A DNA stretch of 54,406 nucleotides from a virus (taxonomy: Duplodnaviria; Caudoviricetes), in IMG/VR virus record IMGVR_UViG_3300028592_000014, positions 1 through 54,406 of that record; one strand, given 5' to 3'. The notes beneath the pieces were generated by a model. The model was not told the DNA's origin. It ran no database searches and saw only the letters and a program-made list of their open reading frames with translations. Below, piece after piece: positions 1 to 7,619 of this stretch; within the stretch, counting starts at the first letter, position 1, and every line of letters begins with the position of its first letter. The translations under genes were made by a program, and so were the position numbers.

Positions 1-231
1 CACTCCTTGGCTCTCACTTGTGCAGCCACGAAGGTTACGTGCCTCATGATCTAGGAGTAACCCCAGGTTCTCGACCAGATCGCCACGAGACCTATGCGGA
101 GCACTATCCAGACGGCTACGAAATGGAGTTTGTGCCAGCCGATGAAGTGGATTCGCACGACGGATTGAATCTTGCATTCCAGCGCAACAAAGCCGCCGCC
201 CCCTCCCAATCAGATAGCGGGAGCAATCATG
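1..231 (+). repeat. Direct repeat copy 1 (partner 41189..41419)
   Basis: Manual alignment: 7 mismatches in 231 bp, perfect over 69..169; may extend left of the window. Confidence 0.97.
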
Positions 232-239
232 AAACTTAA
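1..239 (+). CDS. 5'-truncated hypothetical phage protein, near-identical to 41110..41424
   Basis: Same CSHEGYVPHDLG...YPDGYEMEFV translation. Confidence 0.85.
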   Translation, partial: LLGSHLCSHEGYVPHDLGVTPGSRPDRHETYAEHYPDGYEMEFVPADEVDSHDGLNLAFQRNKAAAPSQSDSGSNHET

Positions 240-429
240 AGCACTCCCCTCGATAAACCGGCCCTGCAAAGAGGCTGCGGTAACATTCGCGCTCGCATTA
301 ATGGATGATATTAAAAACCATGACAATAACGCAGATAACCAGGGCGGCGCTCTACCTCCGGAGCAGCAAAGACCGAAGCGACGTATCAATCGACGCACAG
401 CGGAGGCAGTTGCAGCAACTAGCATCTGA
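229..429 (+). CDS. 66-aa ORF overlapping the integrase start; possible recombination directionality factor
   Basis: GGGAG SD then ATG 229; position only. Confidence 0.4.
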   Translation: MKLKALPSINRPCKEAAVTFALALMDDIKNHDNNADNQGGALPPEQQRPKRRINRRTAEAVAATSI

Positions 430-1882
430 TCGCGGCTTTACCATCGTTGCCGAGTTCGCCGACGCGGTTGAATCCGGCAAAGACGAATTACGGGAAGGTT
501 TCCAAAAGTTACTTACTGCCATGCGCAACAAGCGGCGCGGGTGGGACACTCTCCTGATTCTCGACACATCGCGGCTTGCACGACGTCGGCATATCTCCCT
601 CGTCTTCGAAGAGGTCGAGGCTAAAAAGCATGGTGTACGGGTGGTGTACAAGTCCCTGCCTGACTCCGACCCGATTACCGAAATGCTTCTGAAATCCATT
701 CTTCAGGCAATGGACGAATGGCACAGTCTCACCAGCAAACAAAAGGGCTTGGCCGGAATGGCTGAGAACGTGCGGCAAGGCTGGCGTGCTGGCGGGCGGG
801 CGCCGATCGGCTACCAGCTCGAACACGTCGAGACAGGAGCAATGCGGGAAGGTGCGCCGGTACGCAAAAGCAAGCTGGTTCCGTCCGAAGACGCCGGCAT
901 GATGAAAACCTATCTGACGTTGCGAGCCAAGGGCGTGAACCGACCGAATGCGGCGGGTAAGGTAGGGCTGAAGGCATCGCCGAGCACCTTGGTCGGCATC
1001 GAGTGGAACGCCCTCACCTATGCCGGGCATACCGCTTGGAATGTCAGACATGAGCATGGACCGAGCGGGTATGCCGGAGGCGTCAAGCGGCGACCGCGCT
1101 CAGAATGGGTCATCCAGAAGAATACCCACGAGGCACTGATTACCGACGAGGAAGCCGAAATACTGCTGGTGCGGCTTGAATCGTTCGATCGTGGGCACCA
1201 CTCGCATGCCGACTACCTGCTGACCGGATTGCTGAAATGCCCCACAGGAAACAACTGGCGCGGCTCGGACGGTGGCGACGGCGGTTATTACCGGCTCGGG
1301 AAGGGGAAGCGGGTCAAAGCCAATACGGTGGAATCCGCGGTGCTCACCCAGGTTGTAGAGGACATGCGCACACCGGATTTCATCGAAGAACTGACGGCAG
1401 CGGCGCGCCAGCAGTTTGACGATCGACGCAAGGATGACGCCCTGCCAGCAATGAAAAGGGATGCCGCCGACCTGGAGCGCCGCATCAAACGGCTTACCGA
1501 AATGCTGTCAGACACCGCAAGGCCGGAACCGCTCCTGCGCCAGATCGAGGATTACGACGGGCAGCGCACGGCAATGCTGGTCGAGATCGAAAAGCGGGAA
1601 GAAGAAGCAAAGCAGGTTGCCAAAGTGAAAGCCTTAGCCGCGCCCCAAGTCGCGCGCATGCTAAACCTGATTGCTGAAGAATTCGATGAACTGGATAGGG
1701 AAAAACTTCGTGATCTTTTGAAAGGATTGGTTGAACAGGTCGTTTTAGACGACACTGCTCAAACTTTCCAGATCACTTACCGGTTAGCTGCTGCTACCGG
1801 TCTTAGAATGGCGTCCCCACGGAAAGACGAATCTATGACCGGGATTTTCACACATAAGCGGCGCATGCTGAAGCGAGCGTAG
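305..1882 (+). CDS. int: Large serine recombinase (integrase); start may be ATG 320
   Basis: YLRSS catalytic motif, ESG, DTSRLAR, G..P.GY recombinase domain, YLLTGLLKC zinc-ribbon-like segment, coiled coil. Confidence 0.95.
   Translation: MILKTMTITQITRAALYLRSSKDRSDVSIDAQRRQLQQLASDRGFTIVAEFADAVESGKDELREGFQKLLTAMRNKRRGWDTLLILDTSRLARRRHISLVFEEVEAKKHGVRVVYKSLPDSDPITEMLLKSILQAMDEWHSLTSKQKGLAGMAENVRQGWRAGGRAPIGYQLEHVETGAMREGAPVRKSKLVPSEDAGMMKTYLTLRAKGVNRPNAAGKVGLKASPSTLVGIEWNALTYAGHTAWNVRHEHGPSGYAGGVKRRPRSEWVIQKNTHEALITDEEAEILLVRLESFDRGHHSHADYLLTGLLKCPTGNNWRGSDGGDGGYYRLGKGKRVKANTVESAVLTQVVEDMRTPDFIEELTAAARQQFDDRRKDDALPAMKRDAADLERRIKRLTEMLSDTARPEPLLRQIEDYDGQRTAMLVEIEKREEEAKQVAKVKALAAPQVARMLNLIAEEFDELDREKLRDLLKGLVEQVVLDDTAQTFQITYRLAAATGLRMASPRKDESMTGIFTHKRRMLKRA
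1797..1842. other. attP of the serine integrase (tRNA-Glu-targeting), inside int
   Basis: CCGGTCTTAGA...TCTATGACCGG imperfect inverted repeat, 22+2+22 bp centred on AC 1819-1820; 1809..1822 is the reverse complement of CCGTGGGGACGCCA, a tRNA-Glu-type 3' end. Confidence 0.8.
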
Positions 1883-1900
1883 AATTCTATCACTACCAAA

Positions 1901-2134
1901 ATGGAGCGAAAAATGACCGAAGACCAAGCCAACCGAATAACCGCCCTCGCAATTGATGTCGAGAGAAAGCGGAATAGGTACGAATTGTTGGCGGGAAGAA
2001 ACGCCGCCAATATGAACAGGGAGGAGCGAGAAAGGGCGACGGCAGCCTACCATCTCACACATGCTGAATATATTGAGGCAGAAGCATTGCTGATGAGCGC
2101 AAAGCTATCGGTTATCGACGCCCCTGCCGTCTGA
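1901..2134 (+). CDS. Hypothetical protein
   Basis: 77-aa helical ORF filling the gap; true start may be ATG 1913 behind GGAG. Confidence 0.6.
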   Translation: MERKMTEDQANRITALAIDVERKRNRYELLAGRNAANMNREERERATAAYHLTHAEYIEAEALLMSAKLSVIDAPAV

Positions 2135-2558
2135 ATTCCCAAGGCGGCACCGGCTCAGCATCAGCCCACAGACCGCGCCGCCCTTCCCTTGCTTGATCCT
2201 GCAGTGCTGACAACGCCCGGTCCTTATTGTATTTCTTGTACACCCAGGCAAAGCCGCGCTCGACCTGGGCGCGGTTCACGTCGACGCCGTTGCAGGTGAC
2301 AACCGCCACAGTTCGCCCGTATCGGTCGACATCCTGAACGCGGTAATCAGCATCCTTTTTCCAGCAGAGGTCAGACAGGGATTGCTTTGAGCGCTGGCCG
2401 AACGCCTGGGCTTTCTCCGGTGCATCAATGTTGGCAAGCCGGACCTTCAGCGGCTTTTGGTCGACCAGGAGAGTAAGGGTATCGCCGTCGGCAATCCCGA
2501 TGACTTGGTGAGCTTGAGCAGGGATTGCGATGGTTAGGGCGAGGAGGAAATATTTCAT
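2112..2558 (-). CDS. Thermonuclease (SNase-family) with signal peptide
   Basis: DGDT, VRLANIDAPE, DRYGRTVA, GLWA..PPWEFR motifs; hydrophobic N-terminus ending AQA. Confidence 0.93.
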   Translation of the reverse strand: MKYFLLALTIAIPAQAHQVIGIADGDTLTLLVDQKPLKVRLANIDAPEKAQAFGQRSKQSLSDLCWKKDADYRVQDVDRYGRTVAVVTCNGVDVNRAQVERGFAWVYKKYNKDRALSALQDQAREGRRGLWADAEPVPPWEFRRQGRR

Positions 2559-2567
2559 GCGGGGATT

Positions 2568-2819
2568 TTACTTCGGCCAAGCCTCCACAGTTCGCGCATG
2601 ACGGATTTTGCAATCAGCGTATGCTGGCAGAACCTCGTCAATGATCCAATCCAGCCAAGCGTCATAATCCGCCGTTTCAGGGTTTTCTAGCGTTCGACAC
2701 GGTGCCGACAGTCCCGAGTCCAGCGGCGGCTTTGTTGGTGGCGTCAACAGCGGCGGCGAGGCTGCGCACGCGGACAGTATCAGGGCGGCAATCAGGAGGG
2801 AGAGGCTTTGCGTTCGCAT
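2568..2819 (-). CDS. Rz1: o-spanin lipoprotein (Rz1-like)
   Basis: LSAC lipobox, Pro-rich, overlaps Rz. Confidence 0.85.
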   Translation of the reverse strand: MRTQSLSLLIAALILSACAASPPLLTPPTKPPLDSGLSAPCRTLENPETADYDAWLDWIIDEVLPAYADCKIRHARTVEAWPK

Positions 2820-3099
2820 TTTTCAGATCCTTTTTAATATCGGCGAGCTGAGTATTCACAGCGAAGAATTCAATCCCCGCGCCGTCGGCAGCATCCTTGA
2901 TCTTCTTCGCGGCTTCGGCCAGGTCGGTGAGCGCGGCTTGTGCCTGGTCTGCGCGATCGCTTGCCCGATCAGCCTTGATACTCGAAATCTCGGCATCGAG
3001 TCGCCAGCCGTTTGCAGTCCAACCACTACCGAAGCCGATAGCCACAGCGAGCGCGCCGCCGACGAGCAGCGCCAGCGGGTTGAGTGTCAGCGGACTCAT
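2677..3099 (-). CDS. Rz: i-spanin (Rz-like)
   Basis: N-terminal TM, GWRL, coiled coil, follows endolysin. Confidence 0.85.
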   Translation of the reverse strand: MSPLTLNPLALLVGGALAVAIGFGSGWTANGWRLDAEISSIKADRASDRADQAQAALTDLAEAAKKIKDAADGAGIEFFAVNTQLADIKKDLKNANAKPLPPDCRPDTVRVRSLAAAVDATNKAAAGLGTVGTVSNARKP

Positions 3100-3593
3100 G
3101 ACTCACCCCGCGCCGCGCTATCGGCGGCAGTCCAGTTTGCCGCCCAAGTCTGGGGATGTGGCTTTCCCGGACGCCATGCGCTGATGTACTGCTGCCAGCC
3201 TTGATCGGCAGTAACCGGGAGCGATGACGGCAAGGTATAGATCAGCAGCCGCGCCGCTGTAGCCGCCACGATGTCTTGATAGCGCATCGCTTCCCACAAT
3301 CCGGCGTCGGTCGGCACCACGTTGTAGTCGGCGCATACCCGCTTCATGTGGTTTGTGGTGCTGCGATTGGTCAGCACCTCACGACAACCTCCAGCGCGCT
3401 CGAACTGCCAGAACGATGATGCAGGGCCGGATTCAGTCCCGCCGACAACCTGACGTCGATGCCGCAGTCCGGATTCCTGCAGCGCGATGGCCAGGAGAAA
3501 ACGCCGCGCCTCGAACGAATCCTTGATACCCGATCCGGCTAGATCAGCCAGCGCCGGCACAATCGCTGTCTTGAGTAAGCGTAGAGGCGTCAT
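3096..3593 (-). CDS. Putative endolysin (lysozyme/transglycosylase-like)
   Basis: ALQES and FWQFE motifs; between holin and spanins. Confidence 0.75.
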   Translation of the reverse strand: MTPLRLLKTAIVPALADLAGSGIKDSFEARRFLLAIALQESGLRHRRQVVGGTESGPASSFWQFERAGGCREVLTNRSTTNHMKRVCADYNVVPTDAGLWEAMRYQDIVAATAARLLIYTLPSSLPVTADQGWQQYISAWRPGKPHPQTWAANWTAADSAARGES

Positions 3594-3940
3594 GACTTGC
3601 CCTCCTCGTCCGAGTTCTTACCGCTGTCCGAGCGCGGAAACTTCGTCTCAAAGAACCCTTCGAGCTGGAACAGTGCGCGGCTTCCCATATGACCGGCTAT
3701 GCCGACGAATGCAGCGGTAGCCAACGGCGCGAACCCCGACCACTCGCACAGGTAGAACGTCAGCACGCCGGCGAAAGCGGACGTGAATAGCTCTCCGAAC
3801 AATTCGGCTACGTTGAATGCCCGCGCATGCCCATCCTTGACCTTTCGGATAAACGACACGGCGCCGCCCAAGGCAGACAGGCCGAACACCCACAGGTAAG
3901 TCAGGACCGAGTAGGTTTCTGGTGATTTTTCTGGCGGCAT
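3590..3940 (-). CDS. Holin (LydA-like, 3 TM)
   Basis: MPPEKSPE start, three hydrophobic helices, GHMGSRAL, charged tail. Confidence 0.85.
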   Translation of the reverse strand: MPPEKSPETYSVLTYLWVFGLSALGGAVSFIRKVKDGHARAFNVAELFGELFTSAFAGVLTFYLCEWSGFAPLATAAFVGIAGHMGSRALFQLEGFFETKFPRSDSGKNSDEEGKS

Positions 3941-3955
3941 CTTCACTCCCATAAA

Positions 3956-3977
3956 GAAAAACCCGCTCGCGGCGGGT
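3956..3977 (-). terminator. Intrinsic terminator upstream of the lysis cassette
   Basis: ACCCGC/GCGGGT stem followed by T-run on the minus strand. Confidence 0.8.
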
Positions 3978-4008
3978 GTGTTGTTCTGACTTGTATAATG
4001 CGAAGACT

Positions 4009-4095
4009 ATGCGCGAATACGGAATCGATCCCATACAGCTCGGCGCGGTCATCGCTGGCATCGTGACCGCGTGGCTCAACTCACGGAAAAAGTAG
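4009..4095 (+). CDS. 28-aa membrane micropeptide MREYGIDPIQLGAVIAGIVTAWLNSRKK (not in ORF track)
   Basis: TATAAT at 3994-3999, ORF fills the intergenic gap, single hydrophobic helix plus basic tail. Confidence 0.6.
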   Translation: MREYGIDPIQLGAVIAGIVTAWLNSRKK

Positions 4096-6264
4096 CCCTC
4101 TTTGCTCCCGCTCGTCTGGCTGCATGAATGCTGCTGGCGACATCAACAGGCCAGCCGGCGGCCTTGGCCCAAGCGGGATTTGAGACAGAAGCCCGCGCGG
4201 GACATCCATTGCCCTGTTTGCCTGCATCCCCACCGATATGTTTTGCGCTGGTCCAGAGATGTAGTTCCCAAAGGGTATCTTGCTCAACAGGGGGCTATTT
4301 GCGATCCGATCAAGCACCCCGGTAAGCGCCGCCGTGGTGTTTGAGTTGTTCACCGCCGAGCCGCGCGGCTGGAACTGCTCATAGCTGGCAACACGTCCGA
4401 TTGCTTTCAATTGCTGAATTTCCTGCGGATCGAACAGCAGCTCCAATTTTTGGTCGCCGATGCGCCTCAGGGCCTTATTAAGCGCCGACTGGCTAATGTT
4501 GGCCGCTTCGTCGGCAGCCCCATTAACTGCCTCGGACTTCAGATAACCAAGTACTTCCGACCTAATGGAATTACGCACGCCCTGGTTGTTACCAACAACA
4601 TCAAGCGTCGCCCGCAAGTCGCGCACGTTGGCATTCAGCACATGCTTTTGAAAGAACGCATCCGGCGCAGCGTCATCGATCGCGGCAGCCAAAGAGGGGG
4701 TTCTCTCGACCTGCTGCATGAAGCTGCGATTCGCCCCGCGCGCGGCGTTGAATGCGTCGATTGCCTCTTGGCCGATGTTCGGCCGTAGCTCTGCGGAGAC
4801 GCCGCCGGCCGGCTTGAGTTGAAACCCACCGTTGACGGCCGCAGGCGGTACGGCCGTATCTGCAATCAGCGGAGCATTATCCAGCGCCTGACGAATGAAC
4901 CCGAGCGCAGCACGCGCATTGCCATCGGTAGCGCCGCGCTGCGCATTGCCGATGATGGTTTTGAACTGCTCTGCAGTGTGGACATTCAACGGCACCCTGC
5001 CCGAGGCGAAATCGTTCATCATCGTGCGAATATTGTCCGGCACAAACGCACCTTTCAGATTGAAGTCGAGCAGGTTATTCGCCGTCGTGGAGAAGGCTTG
5101 CGGATCGAGCCTTGCGGCCCTTCCCTGTGAATCCTTGGCCGCGTTATAGAGGTTCGTGATTTCGCCCTGCTGCCGGGTGGCGTAACCGCCAAGCGTGTCG
5201 CGCAGCGTCTGGCCGGTCGCATATTGCCCTTGTGCTTGACCCGCGCCCAAGTCATTCAACCCGGAAATCAGTTGCCGATTGTTGGCATTCTCAACCTGGG
5301 CCAACTGCTGCGCTGCCGCATCCTTGCTGTTGGCGCCGATCTTCGCCAGATTCTTTTCTTGGGTGAGAGTTACCGGGTCAAGCGTCAGCGTACCGACGCG
5401 CGGCGTTGCGCCGGTCAGACGGTAATCGGCAAGTCTGCGGATTGCATCAGGAGACAGAACGCCATCCGAGCGCATTGCTTGCTGCACGTCGGTACGGATG
5501 CTGTTGCGAACATTGGCCGGCAGATCGGCAAACGACACGCCGCTATCTCTCAGCGCGTTATTGATCGTGACATCGACCTGCACATTTTGCGGCGCGACAC
5601 GATTGCGGAAAGCGTTTGCTGCGCTGGTGCCGACCTGCTGCACCTTGCTCAATGCCATAGGCGCGGTAATGCCAGCGGCGAGGGATGCGGCGAGCTGAGA
5701 ACCGTCATTGCCGCCAGTTTCGCGGGTGTAACCGCCGGCACCACCGGCAGCGGCTGCAGATGTCAACTGCGAACCAGGATTGCTTGCCAGTCCCTGAAGC
5801 GTCGCCTTCGTGACTCCCTCCGCACCCTGCGCCAGTCTCCCGGCGCCAGCAACCGGGACCATCGATCCAGCCATCAATCGCGCAGCATCGCCGACGACGC
5901 GCTCCGTCGAGTTCTGTGGAGTCGGCAGCCCGATCTTGTCTGCGGCATATTTGCCGATACCCGGCTTGATAGCCATCGAGTCAGGCAAGACGGCATTCAG
6001 GCCGGCACGAATCGGACTTGAGACAAACTCAAGTGCATCGCCGACGCCCTCGACAGCATGCCGCGCAGTCAATCCGACCTGACGCGGAATGTCCGCAATC
6101 TCGCGGTTCACGCGCTGGCCGAATGGTTCCTCCGGCTTTGGCGCTGCCTGCTGGCTGCCGAGTTGCGATTGCAGCATCTGGAACGCCTGCTCTTTGGTTG
6201 AGCCGTCCGGTCCGGTAACGCTGTATGTCTTGCCTTCCGGCGAAGTGAATTCGAAAGTGGGCAT
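4081..6264 (-). CDS. Internal virion / DNA ejection protein
   Basis: 727 aa, Ala/Gln/Gly-rich, last of three large genes after the tail genes, as in podoviruses. Confidence 0.7.
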   Translation of the reverse strand: MPTFEFTSPEGKTYSVTGPDGSTKEQAFQMLQSQLGSQQAAPKPEEPFGQRVNREIADIPRQVGLTARHAVEGVGDALEFVSSPIRAGLNAVLPDSMAIKPGIGKYAADKIGLPTPQNSTERVVGDAARLMAGSMVPVAGAGRLAQGAEGVTKATLQGLASNPGSQLTSAAAAGGAGGYTRETGGNDGSQLAASLAAGITAPMALSKVQQVGTSAANAFRNRVAPQNVQVDVTINNALRDSGVSFADLPANVRNSIRTDVQQAMRSDGVLSPDAIRRLADYRLTGATPRVGTLTLDPVTLTQEKNLAKIGANSKDAAAQQLAQVENANNRQLISGLNDLGAGQAQGQYATGQTLRDTLGGYATRQQGEITNLYNAAKDSQGRAARLDPQAFSTTANNLLDFNLKGAFVPDNIRTMMNDFASGRVPLNVHTAEQFKTIIGNAQRGATDGNARAALGFIRQALDNAPLIADTAVPPAAVNGGFQLKPAGGVSAELRPNIGQEAIDAFNAARGANRSFMQQVERTPSLAAAIDDAAPDAFFQKHVLNANVRDLRATLDVVGNNQGVRNSIRSEVLGYLKSEAVNGAADEAANISQSALNKALRRIGDQKLELLFDPQEIQQLKAIGRVASYEQFQPRGSAVNNSNTTAALTGVLDRIANSPLLSKIPFGNYISGPAQNISVGMQANRAMDVPRGLLSQIPLGPRPPAGLLMSPAAFMQPDEREQRGLLFP

Positions 6265-7619
6265 TAAGGCTTCTCCGTTACGGTCCAGCCATTGGGTAGA
6301 TTGTTAGCAGCCGGCGGCGGGGCGATGCGCGAGCCTCCAGGGACGCCAGCCAAGGTTCCGTGGATCGCAGTTTGGCGATTTCGGCGCTTCTGCTCGATGA
6401 CCGCATCCGAGTCGCCCGGTTGTGGGAAGTATTGCTTATCCCCGTTAGCAAATTCAGCCGGCGAAATGACAGCGCCTGATTCTTTACGCAAGGCGGCATT
6501 AAGAAAGTTGCGCTTTGCCTGCTCGACCTTTTGTTGATTCGCCGATTGCGTCCAGTTGGTGGCGGTTCCGAAAACATCGGATAGTGTCCCACCCAGGCTT
6601 TCCGTCCCGAGTCCAAGCACGCGCCCGGCTCCCTCCGCGAAAGATTTGATGTTCCCGGATCGAAGAACACCTTGATCTTCTAGTGTGCTCAAGGTTTTGT
6701 CAGCCTCCTGCATGCGCGTACCAAACAGATTGTCTTTCGACTGCGCCTCTGTCAGCGGCTTGTCCGTCCTTGGAAGTGGGGCGCCGCCGGGACCAACACC
6801 GGGCGCATATTGCCCTGTCCTTGGATTGAAGGTGAACGGCTGGCCGTCTACCGTGACATGCTGGACGCGATCAGCGTTTTGCTGCGCCCTTTCCGCGTTC
6901 TGCTTGGACAGGTTGTAATTTGCCCACCCCAAGCTGTTGGATGCAATCGAATCCGGGGATCGCGTGTGCTGAAGCGTTACGCCCGTTTGCCCTGTGTAGG
7001 GATTCACGCCGACCGTCTGGCCGTTCAGATTCTGGAAGTCCAGCTTGTCACGCGGCAGATTGTTATCAAGGCGCTTGATGGTGCCGTTCTTCCCCACAAG
7101 GTAGGTAAATGGCTGGCCGGTTGTCGGATCGACCCCAACCTGTGGACTTGTGCCGAATTCTTCCTGCTGCTTCGCTAAAGTCCGCTGCAGTTCCAGCCCC
7201 TTGAGCGGGTCAATCCCCATCAGGGAAGACACAAAGCCCTGCGTGTCAAAGCTGGGCTGCATGCCTGGAATCCTGTCTGCATTGGCCTGCGTTGGCCCCT
7301 GCCCGTTGCTCAATGCCATTTGTTCGGGTGTGCGCATCGCATCCCGCCCGGCCTGCCTGATTGCCTCTGTTTCGCCGATTTGCCGTTCCATTTCGCCCAA
7401 GCGCATGTTGTTCACTCTGCGCTGAAAGGCGCTGTCCTGCGCGTTCTGCATCCCCTGCACGCCAGCCAGCAGCCCGCCCCCAAGAATCTGCCCAAGCGAC
7501 GAGGGCCGCGTCGAGGGCCCCGAACGGTCGAGAATAGCCGCCGCTGCCGACAGCAAGCCCATGTTCTGCGGATCGGCAAAGCCACCGAGTAAGCCGCCTT
7601 GATAGTCGAGTTTTGCCAT
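6264..7619 (-). CDS. Internal virion / DNA ejection protein
   Basis: 451 aa, LRKESGAVIS..EF motif, synteny. Confidence 0.7.
   Translation of the reverse strand: MAKLDYQGGLLGGFADPQNMGLLSAAAAILDRSGPSTRPSSLGQILGGGLLAGVQGMQNAQDSAFQRRVNNMRLGEMERQIGETEAIRQAGRDAMRTPEQMALSNGQGPTQANADRIPGMQPSFDTQGFVSSLMGIDPLKGLELQRTLAKQQEEFGTSPQVGVDPTTGQPFTYLVGKNGTIKRLDNNLPRDKLDFQNLNGQTVGVNPYTGQTGVTLQHTRSPDSIASNSLGWANYNLSKQNAERAQQNADRVQHVTVDGQPFTFNPRTGQYAPGVGPGGAPLPRTDKPLTEAQSKDNLFGTRMQEADKTLSTLEDQGVLRSGNIKSFAEGAGRVLGLGTESLGGTLSDVFGTATNWTQSANQQKVEQAKRNFLNAALRKESGAVISPAEFANGDKQYFPQPGDSDAVIEQKRRNRQTAIHGTLAGVPGGSRIAPPPAANNLPNGWTVTEKP

Follow-up and report, generated by a model that had tools for sequence, protein, structure and literature searches.

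A probable attachment site within a phage large serine integrase gene, matching the 3′ end of tRNA-Glu

Can a phage that encodes a large serine integrase carry its attachment site inside the integrase gene, and what would integration then do to the enzyme? The question is raised by the left end of a 54,406-nucleotide stretch of viral DNA (Duplodnaviria; Caudoviricetes), which is positions 1 to 54,406 of IMG/VR record IMGVR_UViG_3300028592_000014 and is referred to here as the window. The source record is linear and ~69% complete. Canonical large serine integrases have an intergenic phage site (attP) and a bacterial site (attB) in protein genes, with ~2 bp shared between the two. In the window, positions 1797-1842, which lie within the integrase gene (int), very probably form an attP directed to the 3′ end of a host tRNA-Glu gene, and integration would swap the C-terminal tail of the integrase. 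Comparison with relatives shows the target, the architecture of the prophage junctions (attL and attR), two isoforms of the enzyme and a conserved symmetry centre.

The int open reading frame (ORF) occupies positions 320..1882 on the plus strand and encodes 520 aa from the ATG at 320, with an alternative ATG at 305. Family profiles and fold comparison identify the product as a large serine integrase, in what appears to be its free-phage isoform. Pfam Resolvase (PF00239) matches residues 14-159 (E = 2.8e-20) and the PHROG 95 integrase profile matches residues 4-482 (E = 6.1e-55). The N-terminal domain is of the resolvase-type catalytic kind, with R14, S15 and S16 almost invariant in 61 sequences. 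An AlphaFold2 (AF2) model, for which 61 aligned sequences served as input, had a mean predicted local distance difference test score (pLDDT) of 82.4. It shows, in order, the catalytic domain, a long helix (118-152), the recombinase domain, a beta-rich domain with a long coiled-coil insertion at ~334-470, and a last hairpin at 471-488; pLDDT falls below 50 at residues 494-508 and 517-520. The best Foldseek matches were full-length large serine integrases (E = 3e-16 to 5e-8), among them entries titled as 'serine integrase' complexes, phiC31, Bxb1 and 4kis, and 540-590 columns were aligned between the model and full-length integrases (E = 3e-16). Sequence matches in the PDB were confined to the catalytic domain, so recognition of the full-length relation needed the fold search.

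Two features count against this assignment. The Pfam Recombinase and zinc-ribbon models gave no match to the integrase at E <= 0.001, and the whole protein contains a single Cys, so a four-Cys zinc site is not possible. For these reasons the window integrase appears to be a divergent member of the large serine integrases by sequence. The integrase family comprised 1481 proteins at E <= 1e-30 out of 7999 scored candidates. No close relative in a cultured phage was found by tblastn against INPHARED, which returned only distant N-terminal matches with identity <=27% over the N-terminal 58%.

The candidate attP sits within the last 25 codons of int. Its core is a 46-bp imperfect inverted repeat (1797..1842), the layout of which is shared with relatives. 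The outer P-arm repeat CCGGTCTTAGA (1797..1807) lies within the int coding sequence, and the outer P′-arm repeat TCTATGACCGG (1832..1842) codes for tail residues 505-508. The arms are 11 nt each, complementary at 10/11 positions and 24 nt apart, a spacing that puts the centre between 1819 and 1820, at A|C. When 22-nt half-sites are laid around a 2-nt spacer, 15/22 positions are complementary. The site is short (~50 bp), with an imperfect inverted repeat and a non-palindromic central dinucleotide. Between the arms, at 1809..1822, lies TGGCGTCCCCACGG, found once in the record; read on the minus strand, as CCGTGGGGACGCCA, it is exactly the 3′ end of a tRNA-Glu. In the integrase frame this 14-mer reads M497 A S P R501 and is followed by codons 502-520 and the stop (1823..1882, plus strand; stop at 1880-1882), which give the 19-residue tail KDESMTGIFTHKRRMLKRA predicted for the free form only. 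A previous reading of the DNA without database searches (the sequence-only reading) had described both an inverted repeat of 46 bp centred on AC 1819-1820 inside int and the reverse complement of a tRNA-Glu 3′ end read as MASPR within it; both descriptions held when the arms and centre were recomputed.

It should be noted that the P′ half-site (window 1821-1842) resembles the antisense T-arm of tRNA-Glu (ACGGaaAgaCGAAtC compared with ACGGggAttCGAAcC), and that the resemblance is closer in the relative G003 (GGCGATCCGAGCC). The attP and attB half-sites would thus be alike on that side. The tRNA scan of the window found no tRNA gene inside it.

The target was sought beside related integrases in bacteria. 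One genome per species was scanned, which gave 21 loci with 42-76% identity, and most of the tblastn matches at these loci end at query residue 500-506 of 520. A tRNA scan was made at 17 of the 21 loci (L012, L018, L021 and L022, which are short or cut, were left out). ARAGORN called a complete tRNA-Glu on the opposite strand, overlapping the int 3′ end, at 14 of these 17, usually with tRNA-Ala(GGC) behind it. When the frame was read to the stop, the int ORF ended in ...SP[RAG]G[FI]EPxxxP or ...LP(R)GFEPxxx[PT] in 14/21 loci. At L005 and L006 the same DNA is read in another frame (WRPHGDSNPG...), and three of the 21 int ORFs run off their contigs. The int 3′ end overlaps the attachment site and runs antisense into the target RNA gene, and the stop of the integrated int is the TGA in the antisense anticodon loop. 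Among the 14 tRNA-Glu genes by homologous integrases, eight end exactly in CCGTGGGGACGCCA.

These loci answer the searches that the sequence-only reading had proposed. Homologues of int ending in ASPRGFEP next to tRNA-Glu were found, as was a host tRNA-Glu with the expected 14-nt end. The tail swap also has the predicted form, with GFEPxxxP standing in relatives where the window has its 19 residues.

Some of the bacterial loci showed further features. At L021 (2936-3142, in an Undibacterium genome) the int homologue is broken by a stop after 68 residues of match and is probably a decayed copy. At L009 (2940-3000) only the 3′ half of tRNA-Glu lies beyond attL; the sequence diverges past the anticodon loop, ARAGORN made no call, and the half tRNA may reflect a rearrangement or an assembly break in this metagenome-assembled genome (MAG). 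Inspection of L006 and L032 by eye shows, ~45 nt upstream of the TGG block and inside the coding 3′ end of int, a GC-rich hairpin with a T-run after it when the tRNA strand is read. The hairpin and T-run come directly after the rebuilt tRNA; they may serve as a terminator brought by the phage in place of that of the host, which has been displaced and is seen at attR (L027). Inspection of the window by eye only showed no T-run that would indicate a phage-supplied terminator.

If the bacterial loci are prophages, a second copy of the tRNA end should mark their far border, and pattern searches for it were made in ten of the relative genomes. The second copy was found 36-50 kb away on the same contig in G001, G002, G003, G007 and G009 and on another contig in G004, which implies a prophage size of ~36-50 kb. 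On its right, each second copy is followed by the P′ arm. This reads ...CCTGACGAATCTAAGACCGG... in G001, a Herminiimonas MAG with an int 76% identical to that of the window, as compared with AAAGACGAATCTATGACCGG in the window, and by manual reading this attR sequence (L028) runs in frame to ...LKRA and a stop. An equivalent of the outer P′-arm repeat is present at attR of the G001, G003, G004 and G007 prophages, and every attL has an equivalent of the outer P-arm repeat immediately 5′ of its tRNA-derived block. The six attL/attR pairs share direct repeats of 14, 14, 18, 18, 12 and 20 bp, which start exactly at the TGG of the CCA end in four of the six and one base further 5′ in G004 and G007. 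The shortest is the 12-bp TGGCGTCCCCAC of G009, and its end coincides exactly with AC.

One junction was more complex. In a Nitrosospira prophage (L082, G007:C16 ~143000, compared with L086), attR is preceded by a second, related int 3′-end remnant, so that the junction looks tandem or accreted, like the arrays of Dehalococcoides.

Both states of the element also occur among viral contigs. Relatives were found on 29 of them, 10 integrated and 19 free; the free forms comprised 14 in the frame of the window, two in a second frame and three of a flipped type. The tRNA scan covered 27 of the 29 (L040 and L052 were left out) and found no tRNA-Glu at the free-form viral loci scanned. Given the attL/attR repeats and the symmetry centre shared with relatives, the window would therefore represent the free, non-integrated form.

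In the flipped subtype (L041 ~2900-3140, L044 ~4390-4530, L047 ~4040-4262), the 3′-terminal part of int contains the tRNA-Glu 3′ end in sense orientation, and this tRNA end is flanked by its own inverted repeat (13 bp in L047, manual reading). L008 ~7380-7560, together with L066/L071, is an integrated flipped copy in which int is fused to the displaced tRNA end and host flank, giving an ORF of 588 aa, and the rebuilt tRNA-Glu lies 40 kb upstream. L041 and L047 have a tRNA-Asp gene directly after int.

Two points weigh against the attP call. First, the repeat by itself is near chance: inverted symmetry of 15/22 or better about a 2-nt spacer occurs at three centres of the window (1819, 16810 and 29261), where 20 block shuffles gave 1.0 on average. 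The weight of the call therefore comes from the coincidence of the repeat with the tRNA-Glu 3′ end and from the exact CCGTGGGGACGCCA ending of eight of the 14 tRNA-Glu genes. Second, the junctions come from relatives and not from this phage; two soil-metagenome runs gave contigs only at 2220-2400 and 2253-2286, none over attP.

From the anatomy of the site and the comparison with relatives we infer the following course of integration. The phage would target a host tRNA-Glu(UUC) gene at its 3′ end. Once the integrase had brought attP and this gene together, it would cleave each of them at a 2-bp overlap, most likely AC 1819-1820; the type of enzyme, taken with how the site is laid out, favours a serine-integrase reaction of this kind, with the overlap at the symmetric centre. 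Phage bases 1809-1820 would take the place of the last 12 nt of the tRNA. These are identical, so the tRNA would be rebuilt and stay intact, consistent with the complete tRNA-Glu that ARAGORN calls at attL. The int gene would be joined at codon 501 to the antisense tRNA. R501, whose CGG codon is part of the shared block, would persist, and the isoforms would hence differ from residue 502: the 19-residue tail would be exchanged for ~8 residues, GFEPxxxP, with the stop at the TGA of the antisense anticodon loop. Excision would give back the long tail. The 12-20 bp shared block is far longer than a serine integrase needs, suggesting that selection maintains it so that the tRNA is restored.

Whether the predicted swap matters depends on the free-form tail, which was analysed in the best 120 of the 1481 homologues (80 free, 30 integrated, 10 other or cut). 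Free-form tails vary in the middle but usually end in basic residues and Ala. The last residue is Ala in 55/80, compared with 12.2% Ala in the protein bodies, and the commonest endings were RA (27), AA (14; 41 together with RA) and VA (6). At least two R/K occur at positions −6 to −2 in 55/80 free forms, and R/K stands at position −3 in 57/79. No acidic residue is present among the last 12 in 65/80, against 14.2% D+E in the bodies. The corresponding C-terminus in the window is the basic, Ala-ending HKRRMLKRA (residues 512-520; 1853..1879, plus strand), an ending conserved among relatives and encoded past the attP repeat. With the tails aligned from their C-termini, positions −1 to −4 had an entropy of 1.85-2.82 bits, compared with 3.1-3.9 bits at −6 to −15. 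In single-linkage clusters of the protein bodies, at least half of the members end in Ala in 22 of 34 clusters at 70% identity and in 9 of 12 at 60%, so redundancy does not explain the pattern. The final codons at 16 loci include varied Ala and Arg codons and all three stops, with unrelated DNA downstream, and the frame-2 variants likewise end in ...HNRRAA. That the ending is kept despite differing codons, stops, frame and downstream DNA suggests selection on the protein, and the extreme C-terminus of the free form is probably selected as such.

A strong competing explanation, to which we give somewhat less than an even chance, accepts the attP within the gene and holds the tail swap to be functionally meaningless. 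The site would then lie in a dispensable, disordered extension for reasons of compactness, and the conservation would reflect P′ arm DNA and ancestry. In its favour, the tail is predicted to be unstructured (10-residue pLDDT blocks from residue 491 to the end average 42, 41 and 52), and PHROG 95 homology stops at residue 482. Tail residues 502-511 overlap the P′ half-site, and a core-anchored alignment shows that tail positions 4-9, which overlap P′ arm DNA, are constrained too, so a constraint on DNA explains the conservation of the first ~10 residues. Integrated copies tolerate GFEPxxxP, the frame-2 GDSNPG... and, in L008, an arbitrary host-encoded tail. Furthermore, 25 of the 80 free forms lack a terminal Ala, and the flipped-type relatives end in Gly or Gln. 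For DsiB, a serine recombinase of Dehalococcoides with a similar layout, the part encoded antisense to ssrA was judged unlikely to be functional by McMurdie et al. (PMC3146451). However, the last four tail positions are the most conserved although they lie 30-60 bp past the centre and outside the repeat. They also persist where codons, stops and downstream DNA differ, and even in the second frame, and the frequency of terminal Ala remains far from its 12% background.

The position of the exchange is less certain than the target. The inferred central dinucleotide, AC at 1819..1820, falls at the acceptor-stem/T-stem junction, where the tRNA is quasi-palindromic (TCCCC AC GGGGA, antisense strand). 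Crossover exactly there is likely, as judged from the site symmetry. In the intact sites the symmetry centre falls on bases 11-12 of TGGCGTCCCCxx. Of the 16 intact attP sites (the window and 15 loci), 15 had their best centre at the dinucleotide that follows TGGCGTCCCC, with a tie at L061, and the central dinucleotide was AC in 12, AG in one, AA in one and TA in two. When attP was rebuilt in silico from the six attL/attR pairs, bases 11-12 of the block were the clear best centre in four. The AC named by the sequence-only reading as the centre is thus where both the junction pairs and the intact sites of relatives put it.

Crossover elsewhere in the shared block, for example closer to the CCA end, is the main alternative to AC 1819-1820, and we regard it as unlikely. 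Several observations speak for it. The direct repeats of 12-20 bp permit any position within TGGCGTCCCCAC and so bound the crossover only to 12 bp; the rebuilt centre was 3 bp off in G002 and tied in G009. L049 and L061 carry TA at the symmetry centre, which is awkward for a central dinucleotide, since a palindromic TA should not give orientation control in a serine integrase. The repeat scores of these two sites are the weakest. Against such a shift stands the recurrence of the same centre in nearly all intact sites and most rebuilt ones, and serine integrases are known to cut at the centre of their symmetric sites. As a separate observation, the TA centres (L049 ~4502, L061 ~4475) match hosts with a tRNA-Glu ending in ...CCCTAGGGGACGCCA.

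If the tail is functional, what could it do? The endings RRAA, RRRA, LKRA and HRRRAAI resemble, by eye alone, the MuA and ssrA tags; the sequences given for these are CILEQNRRKKAI for the MuA C-motif-2 degron and AANDENYALAA for ssrA (PMC12723719). The sequence-only reading had guessed that the basic, Ala-ending tail could be a protease tag, a guess that the conservation of this ending in diverged relatives supports indirectly. We tentatively suggest that the end of the free-form tail may be a ClpX-type C-terminal tag or another regulatory module that is lost on integration. The more specific form of this idea is rather doubtful: a ClpX-type tag, MuA- or ssrA-like, would make the free-phage integrase short-lived or have it stripped from the product complex, and integration would delete the tag and leave a stable prophage enzyme. 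The tag-less prophage enzyme would then wait for an excision factor.

The tail might instead be a module for DNA binding or synapsis control, which would bias the free isoform to attP × attB recombination and the tail-less prophage isoform to excision. The tail is strongly basic and its codons adjoin the P′ arm, and in serine integrases it is contacts of the C-terminal domain and the coiled coil that set directionality. We nevertheless consider this improbable, as structure prediction lends no support to a fold or contact of the tail and DNA binding does not account for the conserved terminal Ala. Least credible of all is that the repeat and the tRNA-like 14-mer coincide by chance and attP lies elsewhere in the phage, since, despite the near-chance score of the repeat alone, most of the related loci scanned adjoin tRNA-Glu at exactly this point of the gene and homologues of the window from 1823 onward continue beyond attR (L028).

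The nearest parallel is DsiB, which belongs to the ssrA-specific genomic islands of Dehalococcoides (McMurdie et al. 2011; PMC3146451). As here, DsiB is a serine recombinase (~540 aa) the gene of which always overlaps attL with its 3′ end and continues antisense into the gene of a tRNA-like RNA; the 3′ end of that RNA gene is directly repeated at the far border, and tandem arrays occur (L082 here). The stop codon of DsiB depends on the integration state, and the authors speculate that the gene might be fully functional only on the circle. Unlike the present case, the target of DsiB is ssrA with a T-loop insertion, and the elements are small mobilisable islands with a small recombinase, DsiA, rather than a phage with a lysis cassette (PMC3146451). 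In the window the target is tRNA-Glu, and no DsiA companion or other second recombinase was present among the ORFs checked within 1-6264. The tails of DsiB are reported to be divergent whereas the free-form ending is conserved here, and the two systems are likened by layout, not by sequence.

Group 1 proviruses of Thermotogota (MPV1 and others) have serine recombinases next to tRNA-Glu (bioRxiv 10.1101/2020.11.07.368316). Likened by description, they share with the present phage a phage-borne serine recombinase with a tRNA-Glu insertion locus. They differ in belonging to another phylum, and the available part of that text contains no statement of an attP inside the recombinase gene or of a changed C-terminus. 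The RAP44-like phages of Riemerella have a tyrosine integrase with attP inside int and tRNA-Ser as target (PMC12169736). There too, integration at a tRNA 3′ end cuts int near its 3′ end, alters the integrase of the lysogen and restores the tRNA, but the enzyme family is unrelated, the mechanism different and the common core longer. In mycobacteriophage BPs, the repressor and the integrase both carry ssrA-like tags, and integration removes that of the repressor (PMC9262239). The intragenic attP at a tRNA 3′ end is common to both systems; however, BPs splits a repressor gene and uses a tyrosine integrase, whereas the gene split here is that of a serine integrase. With attP in the integrase gene and a serine recombinase as enzyme, the window is distinct from integration-dependent immunity of the BPs type.

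Myxococcus phage Mx8 IntP/IntX is another tyrosine-integrase case of attP inside int. Compared with phiC31, Bxb1 and A118/LI, the window integrase is predicted to have the same domain order and fold, and its attP is likewise short, with an imperfect inverted repeat around a central dinucleotide. It differs from them in having attP within a gene and 12-20 bp shared, as would follow if the tRNA end must be rebuilt. A literature search, which did not extend to supplements, found no report that deals with this phage family of proteobacteria or describes conservation of the free-form tail. Nor does any of the listed papers on large serine recombinases and tRNA attachment sites of prophages set out the layout. 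The papers found that pair attP with a location in the integrase gene concern tyrosine or archaeal cases. The available part of PMC12884075 does not mention the attP-in-gene layout, and its supplementary tables could list such integrases.

The layout is thus not unprecedented, since DsiB had it at ssrA in 2011, and what appears to be added here is the conserved basic, Ala-ending tail of the free form. Large serine integrases are widely used tools for DNA insertion. Members of the present family would use an attB already present in the conserved tRNA-Glu of many Beta- and Gammaproteobacteria, rebuild that gene and alter their own product. Should the tail turn out to be a tag for a protease or unfoldase, the phage would have a naturally occurring circuit whereby recombination edits the regulation of the recombinase itself. 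On the stability-tag reading, the result would be an integration-dependent switch on the serine integrase that sets lysogeny frequency and blocks re-integration after induction. If the tail is neutral, the locus would still be a clean case of attP inside a serine integrase gene with both forms documented. The conserved tail makes the idea of such a switch testable with two defined isoforms.

The genes beside int support a phage origin of the locus. No recombination directionality factor (RDF) was identified; the 77-aa ORF at 1901-2134 had no family match in the Pfam and PHROG profile searches. The opposite-strand neighbours include homologues of a secreted-type SNase, an Rz-like spanin and a holin, which confirm the phage context. 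The SNase-family nuclease with a signal-like N-terminus lies at 2112-2558 (minus strand). It is followed on the same strand by an embedded pair, consisting of an 83-aa ORF at 2568-2819 (PHROG 2425, unknown function) and the Rz-like spanin at 2677-3099, and then by a PHROG 3108 gene of unknown function at 3096-3593 and the holin at 3590-3952. Integration would put this lysis block (2112-3952, minus strand) at the prophage end opposite int.

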